This document shows, one piece after another, positions 1 through 3,181 of a stretch of DNA of 11,624 bases. The first letter of the stretch is position 1, and each line of letters opens with the position of its first letter. The notes under the pieces were generated by a model that was not told the origin of the DNA, did no database searches, and saw only the letters and a program-made list of their open reading frames with translations. The translations under genes were made by a program, and so were the position numbers. The stretch lies in the IMG/VR virus record IMGVR_UViG_2799113095_000002. One strand, 5' to 3'. The DNA is from a virus. Lineage: Duplodnaviria > Heunggongvirae > Uroviricota > Caudoviricetes.

Positions 1-978
1 ATGACGGTGCGTGCAACCTCAGGACCGGCACCGCTACCGGTCCCGCGCGAGTGGCAGCCGCTCGTAGACCGTTACCGGCTCACCCTCCAGGCCGCCGGGT
101 ATCCGAAGACCACCATCGGCACCCGGATGTCCCACATGAACCGGATAGCCAGGTCCTTGGCGATACCGCCCGAGGCGGTGACACACGATCTACTCGAGGT
201 TTGGTTCGCTCACCAAACCCAGTGGGCGCAAGAGACACGGCGCGGCTATCGCACGTCGGCGACGAAGTTCTTTGGCTGGGCCCACGCGGCAGGCCATATA
301 CCGATCGACCCGTCCACGAAGCTACCGTCAGTGAAGCCGGGGCTACCCGCACCGAACCCCGCGCCTGACCGCATCTGGAAGGAAGCCCTCCTCGCGGCCG
401 ACGCCAGAACCACCGTGATGCTGCACCTCGCCTGCGGGGCCGGGCTCCGGCGGGCCGAAGTCGCACAAGTCCACACCGATGACCTCCGGGAGGGCTTCTC
501 CGGGTACCAACTGCTCGTGCACGGCAAGGGCGCCAAGGACCGCCTGATCCCGATCTCAGACGAAATCGGCGCGATGATCCTCGCCGGGCCGGGCGGCCAC
601 ACCCCCGGTCACGGCGACAGGGGATTCCTATTCCCTGGGGCGGATGGCGGCCACCTCTCCGCACGGTGGGTCGGAAAGCTCTGCGCGGCAGCGATGCCGG
701 GGGTTTGGACGATGCATAAGCTGCGGCACCGGTTCTCTACCCGCGCATACCAGCGCACCCGGAACCTCCGCGCCCTCCAGCAGCTCCTCGGGCATGCGAG
801 CGTCGCCACGACGCAGATCTACACTGCGGTCGATGACGACGAAATGCGGGAGACGATGCTCGCCGCTACTGACACCAGCCCGCGCCCTTGGACGCGGTGG
901 GCGAGCTCTGCGGCAGGAGTTGTAGTTGCGGCCAGCGCCGCGACACTAGCCAGTCATGCGGTGTCGCTAGTACCTTAA
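1..978 (+). CDS. int: Tyrosine recombinase/integrase, short XerC-like type with no arm-binding domain
   Basis: The full catalytic set is present: R150 (GLRRAE), K176 (HGKG), H239-x-x-R242 (HKLRH), H265 (LLGH), Y274 (TQIY). The N-terminal ~110 aa fit a core-binding (SAM-like) domain. The ATG is base 1 of the window, so upstream context cannot be seen. Confidence 0.93.
   Translation: MTVRATSGPAPLPVPREWQPLVDRYRLTLQAAGYPKTTIGTRMSHMNRIARSLAIPPEAVTHDLLEVWFAHQTQWAQETRRGYRTSATKFFGWAHAAGHIPIDPSTKLPSVKPGLPAPNPAPDRIWKEALLAADARTTVMLHLACGAGLRRAEVAQVHTDDLREGFSGYQLLVHGKGAKDRLIPISDEIGAMILAGPGGHTPGHGDRGFLFPGADGGHLSARWVGKLCAAAMPGVWTMHKLRHRFSTRAYQRTRNLRALQQLLGHASVATTQIYTAVDDDEMRETMLAATDTSPRPWTRWASSAAGVVVAASAATLASHAVSLVP
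971..976 (+). promoter_or_regulatory. Putative SigA -10 box (TACCTT) for a leaderless lipoprotein mRNA
   Basis: A TANNNT hexamer lies 7 nt before the ATG at 984. No Shine-Dalgarno is visible. It overlaps the last codons of int. Confidence 0.45.
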
Positions 979-983
979 CCGCT

Positions 984-1415
984 ATGGACCTGCGGAAACT
1001 CGGCTTGTGTGCGCTCTCAGCGGTGGCGCTGGCTGGATGCAGTCAGCCTGCCGGCCAAACTGCTGCCGGCGGAAGCACGGTCGTCACGTCGGTGATCGTG
1101 TCGGTACCGGCGGCGGCGCGGGAAACTGTCACCGTGACGGCGCAACCAACTTCCGTAACCCCGGAAGAGGGCGACCCTAACGACCAGGCGTTCATGGCCG
1201 TACTTGTACAGCACGACATCAACGTGGGCAGCCGCGCGCAGTCGATCGCACTGGGACACAGGGTCTGTGAGTGGTTCGAGGAGCGGCCAGACAATGACTT
1301 GGCCGCCGCCGTGAAGGGCATCGTCCAGAGCTACCCGAAGATCTCCCAGGAGCAGGCTGCACTCTTGGCTGGCGCGGCGGGCCGCGCGTACTGCCCGGAC
1401 ACTCAAATCAGGTAG
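984..1415 (+). CDS. DUF732-like lipoprotein, 143 aa
   Basis: The start is re-assigned to ATG 984 within ORF 888..1415. It has a signal peptide MDLRKLGLCALSAVALAG|C with lipobox LAGC (Cys19), a Thr/Val/Ala-rich linker (ETVTVTAQPT), and a C-terminal domain DQAFMAVL...GHRVC...AYCP with the two Cys typical of DUF732. Confidence 0.82.
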   Translation: MDLRKLGLCALSAVALAGCSQPAGQTAAGGSTVVTSVIVSVPAAARETVTVTAQPTSVTPEEGDPNDQAFMAVLVQHDINVGSRAQSIALGHRVCEWFEERPDNDLAAAVKGIVQSYPKISQEQAALLAGAAGRAYCPDTQIR

Positions 1416-1430
1416 CGCCCATAAACGACA

Positions 1431-1463
1431 AAGAGGGCCAGCCCGTAGCGGGCTGGCCCTCTT
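1431..1463. terminator. Intrinsic terminator between convergent genes, probably bidirectional
   Basis: A perfect 14-bp inverted repeat AAGAGGGCCAGCCC-gtagc-GGGCTGGCCCTCTT lies between stops at 1415 (+) and 1477 (-). The minus strand has a T-rich tail (CTCTTTGTCGTTTAT); the plus-strand tail is weak. Confidence 0.85.
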
Positions 1464-1476
1464 GCGGATCTCGGCG

Positions 1477-2664
1477 TTACCGGCGAGCTGCGGTGAGCAT
1501 CGCGTCTACCCCGGTGGCCGCGAAGTCGTTGGAGCGGTCAACGTCCTCGATCTCTTGAGCGTAGGAGGTAACCGCGTGCATCACTCCGCCAGCGGTGAGC
1601 TGGCCGCCCTTGATGAAGTGATCGAGGATGCCCTTCATTTCGTCCTGCGAGTAGGCAAGCTTCTTGCCTACGGCCTCGATGGCGCCCTGCGCGTCTTCCA
1701 GCGGAACGGTGCTGGTCTGCTCCAGCTTGGCGACGGTGCGGGTGACGTAGTCCACGTTCATGAACGAGGTGACTGCGTCCTTGACCTGCTGCTTGACCAG
1801 CTCGTTGGATGCGTCGATGGTTTCGGTGGACCATTCGATCTGTCCTTCATCGAGCTTCTTACCGAGGTGGACTTTCCGCATGGCGTCGGCGTTGATGGTC
1901 ATGCCGTTGTCGCACACCAGGACCCGCAGCTCTGGGGTGATGGTGAGTGCGCCGCCACCGGTTTCGCTGTTGGTGACGAGGAGGCCCGCGTACACCAGCT
2001 TGGGGTTCTCGGCGGCCTCGCCACCGTGGCCGGTGCCCTGGAACGGTGAGCGGTAGTTCTCCAGCAGCTTCTCCGCTTGAACGCCGTACTCGCGGGCCGT
2101 GACGCGGAGATACAGCCGGTCATCGGTGAGGTCGCAGCTGCGGATGTGGGTCTCGTTGAGACCGGCAGCCTGCATCCCGTCCAGCAGCGCGAGCACGGTG
2201 TCGAGGTTGTCGCGGATGCCGTACTTGTCCGAGAGCACCGCGCGGACGATTCCGTTCGAATCGGGGTAGAGGGGGTCGGTGCCGTAGAGGGTGCGGACGA
2301 GAACCTTCTTCTCGGGATCGGCCATGATGGCCAACTCGTTGAAGTTGGTGTCCAGCAGCTCGACGTGCTGCGCGCGCAGCTTGCGGACGTACTTGGTGGG
2401 GATGTCGAGCACGTTCCCCAGCTGAGCGTCGGCCAGTCCGGTCATGCGGAACGCGCCGTTTACCTCGGTCACCCCGCGCTCATCGATGTGGGGCTCGAAG
2501 CCGTCGAGGATGAGTTCGCCGTGCTCGAAGTGGATACGGGACATCGGGACCACGAGGTCGGCCTTGTGGGCGTGCTGGTGTTGGAGGAGTTCCACCAAGG
2601 AGGCGAGGTCGCCCCGGCGGAGGGTGCGTTGCGGGAGAGCCGGGAGGGTGGCGGGAGCGGTCAT
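1477..2664 (-). CDS. DUF932/DUF945-like phage/plasmid protein, 395 aa
   Basis: Long ORF with strong GC3 bias and SD AAAGGA 8 nt upstream. The motif LLVTNSETGGGALTITPELRVLVCDNGM matches the NSxxG...R.vC.NG signature I recognise for this family. Function unknown. Confidence 0.72.
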   Translation of the reverse strand: MTAPATLPALPQRTLRRGDLASLVELLQHQHAHKADLVVPMSRIHFEHGELILDGFEPHIDERGVTEVNGAFRMTGLADAQLGNVLDIPTKYVRKLRAQHVELLDTNFNELAIMADPEKKVLVRTLYGTDPLYPDSNGIVRAVLSDKYGIRDNLDTVLALLDGMQAAGLNETHIRSCDLTDDRLYLRVTAREYGVQAEKLLENYRSPFQGTGHGGEAAENPKLVYAGLLVTNSETGGGALTITPELRVLVCDNGMTINADAMRKVHLGKKLDEGQIEWSTETIDASNELVKQQVKDAVTSFMNVDYVTRTVAKLEQTSTVPLEDAQGAIEAVGKKLAYSQDEMKGILDHFIKGGQLTAGGVMHAVTSYAQEIEDVDRSNDFAATGVDAMLTAARR

Positions 2665-2723
2665 CTGAGCATTCCTTTCGAGTATTCAGCGAGGCAGCGA
2701 ACCATTCGCTAAACTGACTTGAA

Positions 2724-2742
2724 AAGTATAGCGCGCTTTACC
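2724..2742 (-). promoter_or_regulatory. Promoter/operator 1: -10 TATACT (2730-2725) inside palindrome GTATAGC-GC-GCTTTAC
   Basis: AAGTATAGCGCGCTTTACC is an 18/19 match to 3112-3130. It sits about 60 nt upstream of the DUF932-like start. There is no clear -35. Confidence 0.7.
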
Positions 2743-2842
2743 GACGCAGCGCTATCTTGCTGCATAAACAACTCATTTCCCCAGTTCGCATTATTGCCTT
2801 GTCCCTATTTGCCCTGAGCAGCACTCACCCAGCCACGGAGGG

Positions 2843-2865
2843 CCTGTCGCGGTAACGCGACCAGG
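2843..2865. other. Small stem-loop downstream of the HTH gene
   Basis: CCTGTCGCG-GTAA-CGCGACCAGG forms a 9-bp stem with one bulge. No U-tract follows on the minus strand. Confidence 0.45.
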
Positions 2866-2898
2866 AGGGGGTGGTAGAGGACGGAGCGGGGCCGGTGG

Positions 2899-3105
2899 TT
2901 ACCGGGTGCCGCGCCAGATCTGCCCAACGCGCTGCTTGGTCAGGCCAGCGGCCTCACCAATCTCAGGCTGGGTCAGGCCGAGGTTCTGGCCATCCTTGAT
3001 CGCTTCAATGAGCAGCGACTCAGCGCTCTCGCGGCGCGCACGACGCCGGGCGATGAGTTCCAGGTGTGCCACCTGCTCCTCGCTCAGCTTCCGCTCACGC
3101 ACCAT
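2899..3105 (-). CDS. Small helix-turn-helix DNA-binding protein, 68 aa, probable repressor
   Basis: C-terminal HTH LTQPEIGEAAGLTKQRVGQIW is preceded by a long amphipathic helix. The ATG lies 7 nt downstream of a TATACT box, consistent with a leaderless mRNA. Confidence 0.82.
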   Translation of the reverse strand: MVRERKLSEEQVAHLELIARRRARRESAESLLIEAIKDGQNLGLTQPEIGEAAGLTKQRVGQIWRGTR

Positions 3106-3111
3106 GCGGCG

Positions 3112-3130
3112 AAGTATAGCCCGCTTTACC
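3112..3130 (-). promoter_or_regulatory. Promoter/operator 2: -10 TATACT (3118-3113) inside palindrome GTATAGC-CC-GCTTTAC
   Basis: AAGTATAGCCCGCTTTACC differs from operator 1 only in the palindrome spacer. The geometry is TATACT-N7-ATG. A weak -35-like TTTGCT lies 16 nt upstream. Confidence 0.72.
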
Positions 3131-3137
3131 CATCAGC

Positions 3138-3181
3138 AAACGAACGAAGTCCGCCCCCCGGCCCGAAGGCCAGAGGGCGGA
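3138..3181 (-). terminator. Rho-independent terminator ending the late/lysis operon
   Basis: The minus-strand RNA UCCGCCCUCUGGCC-UUCG-GGCCGGGGGGCGGA is a 14-bp stem with two G.U wobbles and a C(UUCG)G tetraloop. It is followed by CUUCGUUCGUUU and lies 37 nt after the stop at 3219. Confidence 0.85.

Follow-up and report, generated by a model that had tools for sequence, protein, structure and literature searches.

Two neighboring genes of a Mycobacterium abscessus-type temperate phage, one for a small helix-turn-helix (HTH) protein and one for a DUF932-like protein, carry the same palindrome over the -10 elements of their promoters. We favor, with reserve, the reading that they form an immunity-independent, negatively autoregulated establishment circuit, which would give a burst of expression on DNA entry followed by shut-off. 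Repression of both promoters by the HTH protein appears likely, whereas the activity of the DUF932-like protein is the least certain part of the explanation. The window (the whole stretch of DNA analysed, 11,624 nucleotides) is part of the phage genome. Its minus strand carries tail, lysis and membrane genes, then the HTH gene and the DUF932-like gene; its plus strand carries a tyrosine integrase and a DUF732 lipoprotein gene, convergent on the HTH and DUF932 genes. The features under discussion are as follows.

1431-1463: hairpin of 15 bp separating DUF932 from the convergent DUF732 lipoprotein gene
1477-2664, minus strand: DUF932-like gene, 395 aa, phrog_1362 (E 2e-95), DUF932/TIGR03299 structural family
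2665-2718, minus strand: conserved DUF932 5' leader of about 60 nt, with the ribosome-binding site at 2672-2679
2725-2730, minus strand: -10 hexamer TATACT of the DUF932 promoter
2726-2741: operator copy 2, covering the spacer and -10 of the DUF932 promoter
2899-3105, minus strand: HTH gene, 68 aa, phrog_686 (E 7e-9), putative autorepressor
3113-3118, minus strand: -10 hexamer TATACT of the HTH promoter, 7 nt before the ATG
3114-3129: operator copy 1, covering the spacer and -10 of the HTH promoter
3138-3181, minus strand: terminator-like hairpin after the lysis genes (stem 3150-3181), U-rich tail interrupted

Judged by codon changes against one relative of 88-92% nucleotide identity, both reading frames are real and under purifying selection (synonymous to non-synonymous changes 13:3 in the HTH gene and 105:22 in the DUF932-like gene). 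The module lies between the lysis cassette and the integrase and is kept in four complete relatives of 74-76 kb, in which the immunity repressor and cro lie beyond the integrase; an identical 395-aa protein, in the same gene order, occurs in an integrated prophage. Some features of the neighborhood deserve mention in their own right. The integrase ORF (1-978, plus strand) has an alanine-rich tail and is a few codons longer than in relatives (321 aa). Behind it, the lipoprotein gene (984-1415, plus strand) is convergent with DUF932, has a terminator in common with it and occupies a typical lysogen-cargo position; one relative has an extra 52-codon ORF between these two genes (L019:7215-7373). 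Between integrase and attachment site, and divergent from the integrase, lies an unannotated att-proximal pair encoding a 98-aa HTH protein and a 228-aa membrane protein (minus strand; genome C1 540-837 and upstream, left of the window; L019:9038-10020).

The two genes had been predicted to be bracketed by strong terminators and so cut off from the late operon. Both hairpins do exceed shuffled sequences: the one at 1431-1463 (z -5.9 on the minus and -7.0 on the plus strand) is probably a bidirectional terminator, and the stem at 3150-3181 (z -3.4) is conserved in four relatives. However, the U-tract of the upstream hairpin is interrupted, and neither “strong” nor “cut off” was borne out; insulation of the two genes from late read-through is plausible. 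The tail of this hairpin overlaps the -35 region of the HTH promoter. No terminator was found between the two genes, the stretch past the HTH stop (2840-2898) having no significant hairpin (z -0.75), and consequently the HTH transcript may run into DUF932.

Two copies of the 16-bp palindrome are present in the window against 0.03 expected, and none of 200 shuffles reached two. The copies differ at one central base, each is imperfect, and each ends in TATACT, as expected from the predicted identical -10 elements under a common palindrome. Both sites are nearly invariant in five aligned relatives, whereas the DNA from the HTH stop to the second promoter diverges. The left half falls in the promoter spacer, a part on which polymerase places no sequence demand, and yet it is conserved; we count this in favor of a repressor operator. 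From the spacing of 7 nt between TATACT and ATG, the HTH mRNA is predicted to be leaderless. Neither promoter has a consensus -35, and a promoter scan of the window found no site. A bidirectional promoter was rejected as the source of the symmetry, there being no -10 or gene on the plus strand, as was an extended -10 (TGn), which is absent in the window. Aca2-like RNA control through a conserved 5' leader hairpin was also rejected: the small hairpin in the DUF932 leader is not above chance and is absent from other lineages.

The original prediction proposed a search for the operator beside homologous HTH genes together with a list of their cargo, and in this search the arrangement recurred in three other temperate lineages. 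All eight aligned HTH homologs belong to phrog_686. Each of the four temperate lineages has a leaderless HTH gene whose -10 is overlain by GTnnAG-N4-CTAnAC, and this motif is found again in the DUF932 promoter; on sequence grounds, this upholds the regulatory half of the prediction. The window lineage has two good sites per genome (four complete 74-76 kb relatives), exactly at the HTH and DUF932 promoters; the L023 prophage has 3, the MabK prophages prophiGD43A-5 and prophiT37-1 have 5-7, and the cluster Y phages Bipper and Typha have 9. In the collection scan, nothing but the four close relatives showed paired operator copies. The HTH and DUF932 genes of MabK and cluster Y are 4-6 kb apart, and what links them is therefore the operator and not adjacency. 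Seen among its relatives, the module is not self-contained, or “insulated”, as had been supposed, and is the smallest form of a dispersed regulon. This two-gene form is the minimal one and isolates DUF932 as the core output; among the cargo found, only DUF932 is common to all four lineages. The other cargo is variable: alongside many small genes of unknown function, MabK, cluster Y and L023 have a BrnT-like toxin gene under the operator. No BrnT-like gene was found in three complete window-lineage relatives, where the positive control was detected, and no recognised anti-defence or anti-restriction family was found among nine co-regulated proteins scanned.

The lytic C2 phages Myrna, Phabba and ScoobyDoobyDoo have an HTH homolog and 4-6 exact sites, and the circuit is thus not tied to lysogeny; the Myrna sites inspected lie inside promoter-like TTGCG...TATA(C/G)T. 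In Phrappuccino, a phage carrying DUF932, HTH gene and site are both absent. The Myrna promoter sites, of the form TTCTAG-N4-CTATAC, are at L115:2996, 4591, 9328, 13343 and 20166, and its HTH homolog is gp249 (L114:2396-2722). Eight promoters of Bipper (L013, L014; 32997-36952, 66897-71347) share the operator and a conserved leader of ~20 nt past the start site. A short Bipper-like remnant (integrase, DUF932 and two more genes) is present in a Mycolicibacterium fortuitum chromosome (L079:4946-8422), its DUF932 protein identical and its operator intact.

The best PDB match of the HTH profile is RelI (PDB 9SDC), which we take to be the M. tuberculosis antitoxin Rv2664. Helix and HTH align without gaps over 52 residues at about 35% identity, a match that is not significant (E 0.017 with the profile, 0.29 with the single sequence). 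The protein differs from RelI in lacking an acidic N-terminus, and the window lineage lacks a BrnT-like toxin gene. Taken together, the toxin among the regulated genes and the likeness to RelI provide a lead to an origin of the HTH protein from an antitoxin DNA-binding domain. Behind the BrnT-like toxin genes under the operator (L023:5363-5848 and L017:4890-5323, both minus strand) follow short partners of 59 and 64 aa, unrelated in sequence and with no Pfam match, and the GD43A-5 partner is without an evident DNA-binding domain; it is as if the antitoxin were split between the short partner and the HTH protein.

We hypothesize that phage DNA would enter a cell without HTH protein, that host RNA polymerase would fire both TATACT promoters, and that leaderless HTH mRNA and DUF932 mRNA would be made at once. 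The HTH protein, presumably a dimer via its N-terminal helix, would then bind the two palindromes, covering both -10 elements, and turn expression down for the remaining lytic cycle and in the lysogen. DUF932 would be needed briefly and most likely would act on or for the newly entered DNA, through protection from a host barrier or through processing. Binding, repression and timing we infer from the observed anatomy and conservation, the family and fold, and the co-occurrence of HTH gene, operator and DUF932. Six sequencing runs contain the stretch; of the four examined, two are DNA-like and one, with flat contig depth, is only guessed to be RNA. A raw RNA run had no reads on the stretch.

The name DUF932 for the 395-aa protein, proposed in the original prediction along with a check by HMM and structure, rests on homologs and structure, because the HMM alone is borderline. 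The PF06067 score falls below threshold (E 0.08, 13.1 bits against a gathering threshold of 23), but the chain of homologs and the predicted fold agree: PF06067 is matched by 17 of 117 homologs (E<0.01), and the structure model (pLDDT 92) matches BFVD folds named DUF932/DUF945/TIGR03299 (TM 0.3-0.7, E down to 4e-19) and an Atlas cluster with PF06067 members (TM 0.87). Against the PDB, Foldseek of the model returned nothing at E<=0.001, and the best VIA hit of the whole model had Z 5.3. With residues 1-150, VIA returned mostly OB folds (RPA, SSB, Cdc13) at Z up to 4.7, below the tool threshold and a lead only, so that the N-terminal part may be described as weakly OB-fold-like in the model. A PDB sequence search gave no match below E 0.2, the family searches gave no Acr-type name, and neither sequence nor structure searches revealed similarity to a solved Acr or anti-restriction protein. 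DNA mimics such as Ocr and ArdA have a strong acidic excess, unlike the present protein (pI 5.2, net acidic fraction 0.04; family median 0.03). Its conserved residues include R124, R141, D152, N232, S233, C251, N253 and H266. The family is large (5,880 clusters at 50% identity), and no biochemical function of DUF932/DUF945 was found in the literature searched.

Plasmids offer an indication of when such proteins act. Among the families of plasmid leading regions, YubP/DUF945/PF06067 ranks third in size, with a median position of 1 from oriT (PMC11541004, Suppl. 3), in keeping with the original prediction. Its “anti-restriction” label rests on one of 4,661 members that matches P1 Hdf by structure (PMC11541004). 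In F, ygeB, named within the YubP/DUF945 family, is under the single-stranded promoter Frpo1, deletion of which lowers conjugation, and the genes under Frpo1 matter for conjugation (PMC9849209). On Streptomyces plasmids, 8 of the 9 DUF932 matches listed lie within 2.4 kb of the record end and read inward, against 0.22 expected, although these matches are related (66-86% identity) and not independent. The terminal position fits an “end first” transfer model (PMC11707576). On three linear plasmids the gene lies 1.5-2.3 kb from the ends, reading inward (L118:2171-3349; L119:1493-2656; L120:1988-3163), and heads runs of hypothetical genes that may be a terminal leading region. Other homologs lie near ssb or relaxase genes, and a further one lies upstream of primase-polymerase, DUF3799 and RecT genes. 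These positions support an early role for incoming DNA and do not separate anti-defence from DNA processing. We regard an anti-defence activity as possible, and DNA binding or processing as possible to the same degree.

Our preferred reading, a circuit for establishment, should be interpreted with some caution. The C2 DUF932 promoter has a half-site and no full site, Avani (cluster F) has an HTH homolog without a site, and the site at the HTH gene of Typha is degenerate. Moreover, cargo genes expressed in the lysogen typically occupy such a place, between lysis genes and integrase (PMC8092301). It is conceivable, though unlikely, that the module is att-proximal cargo of this sort, the HTH protein holding prophage expression steady and low and DUF932 conditioning the lysogen, perhaps to fend off other phages. 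Regions placed in this way are expressed in lysogens (PMC8092301), the operator of MabK, cluster Y and L023 precedes a toxin gene as well, and in Variovorax, exposure to phage attack led to selection of DUF932 variants (10.1101/2025.06.20.660599). However, the Variovorax change destroyed the start codon, which does not resemble a gain of defence. About 240 phage records contain the gene, with many from lytic cluster C phages, the lytic C2 phages have both HTH gene and operator, and there was no match in PADLOC. A search of NCBIfam also gave nothing.

Further observations that count against an establishment circuit come from the repressor-cro region. In all four relatives the intergenic stretch between repressor and cro has a degenerate third copy of the operator, matching at 10 of 12 informative bases. 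In relative G001 it is upstream of the repressor start (L019:10507-10522, outside the window's contig), and only 0.3% of shuffles of the 116-bp stretch do as well. In addition, prophage G005 has DUF932 without phrog_686, yet sites resembling the operator, though degenerate, are present at its cro gene and its DUF932 operon; its DUF932 may be wired to the immunity switch. It could therefore be argued that the immunity repressor or Cro is what binds the palindromes, that the HTH gene is one more cargo gene, and that derepression on entry is tied to the lysis-lysogeny switch. We consider this improbable. At 11.7 bits the degenerate copy reaches about half the score of the two main sites (24-25 bits) and stays within the maxima of shuffled 13-kb sequence (top 14.9), and the repressor-cro regions of cluster Y (Bipper, Typha) and MabK (prophiGD43A-5) gave no copy. 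The lytic C2 phages carry the sites too, and the repressor-cro region of the window lineage has its own 9-mer, repeated up to three times and absent from the HTH and DUF932 promoters. Through the degenerate copy the HTH protein could be coupled to the lysogeny switch, tuning the immunity promoter as well; alternatively, the ligand could be an immunity protein. The 9-mer, RTWACTCAC around the cro start (L019:10530-10625; L128:1060-1155), is a candidate immunity operator of the prophage group. Judged from the integrated copy L081, the attachment site is probably inside the repressor gene, as in integration-dependent immunity.

It seems quite improbable that the motif arose by duplication of a promoter cassette, or serves an activator, rather than being a repressor operator. 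The right half of the motif is the -10 itself, the window has no consensus -35, so that an activator could be needed, and the sequence shared by the Bipper copies extends into a longer leader, which would fit duplication of a cassette. On the other hand, the symmetric left half is kept across lineages with different flanks and leaders, a protein on the -10 would block polymerase, and no divergent gene or opposite-strand -10 accounts for the symmetry. A toxin-antitoxin-like pair, with the HTH protein as RelI-type antitoxin and DUF932 as its toxic partner, is very improbable: the RelI match comes first among PDB hits, and in F deletion of ygeA alone cuts conjugation more than loss of the promoter with both genes (PMC9849209), which on our reading could mean that YgeB is harmful when unopposed, but the RelI match is not significant. 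The two genes have separate promoters and lie 4-6 kb from each other in MabK and cluster Y, and there are phages with DUF932 that have no HTH gene. PDB structure searches found no known toxin fold in the DUF932 model, and the adjacent, co-transcribed toxin of known fold expected of a type II system was not found at the locus.

Aca proteins are small HTH repressors that bind palindromes in anti-CRISPR promoters and allow a burst on DNA entry followed by shut-off. The original prediction of Aca/Acr-like logic held insofar as a small HTH protein is encoded with its cargo and an inverted repeat lies in both promoters; like Aca1 and Aca2, the system combines a palindrome in a strong host-type promoter with putative autoregulation and an expected burst and shut-off on entry. 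It did not hold as to membership of the Aca/Acr group: the cargo is a 395-aa protein of DUF932 fold and not a known Acr, there are two promoters instead of one acr-aca operon, the HTH gene is upstream and leaderless, and the regulon is dispersed in relatives. No Aca chain was found among the PDB matches of the HTH protein up to E 5, a comparison with solved Aca proteins only. Furthermore, we know of no CRISPR-Cas in M. abscessus.

Reg576 is a ribbon-helix-helix protein. Together with CUP/ArdK/ArdR of pKM101, Reg576 of p576 is the closest functional analogue, one small element-encoded regulator acting on several dispersed promoters whose genes are briefly expressed in a new host (PMC6294495, PMC8708921). 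Likewise, the phages have one putative regulator and an operator repeated at several promoters including its own, with 2 to 9 sites per genome. The analogues are on plasmids, however, and include proven anti-restriction genes, of which none was identified here. The nearest described mycobacteriophage case is ESAS of cluster K, where an inverted repeat is embedded in the SigA-like promoters of accessory genes, a toxin gene among them (PMC11373665, PMC3203893). Its regulator, given as unknown in that work, is believed to differ from the immunity repressor (PMC11373665); the sequence and spacing of the present motif differ, and a candidate regulator is encoded behind one of the sites. The DUF932-like protein resembles DUF932/DUF945/TIGR03299 proteins (YubP/YgeB of F, YafZ) in predicted fold and mobile-element distribution, but is about 120 aa longer than YubP and would be controlled through a repressor, not through a single-stranded promoter. 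The putative establishment switch is conserved across relatives; no description of the repressor-operator pair was found in the literature searched.

In conclusion, the two-gene form offers the simplest test system, with one regulator, two sites and one cargo, and cultured phages with the circuit exist in Bipper, Typha and Myrna on M. smegmatis, in which DUF932 is gene 49, 51 and 67, respectively. DUF932 ranks among the commonest proteins without explanation in plasmid and phage DNA that enters first; speculatively, it may be an establishment factor against a host barrier, or a shield for incoming DNA, timed by a dedicated repressor derived from an antitoxin DNA-binding domain. If it does not counter a host barrier, the module would be an ordinary second repressor circuit. 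If it does, the finding would give a function to a large family and would bear on the differing phage susceptibility of M. abscessus strains. The operator would then mark candidate counter-defence genes in temperate and lytic mycobacteriophages alike, and would be usable for guilt-by-association discovery, as Aca genes were.
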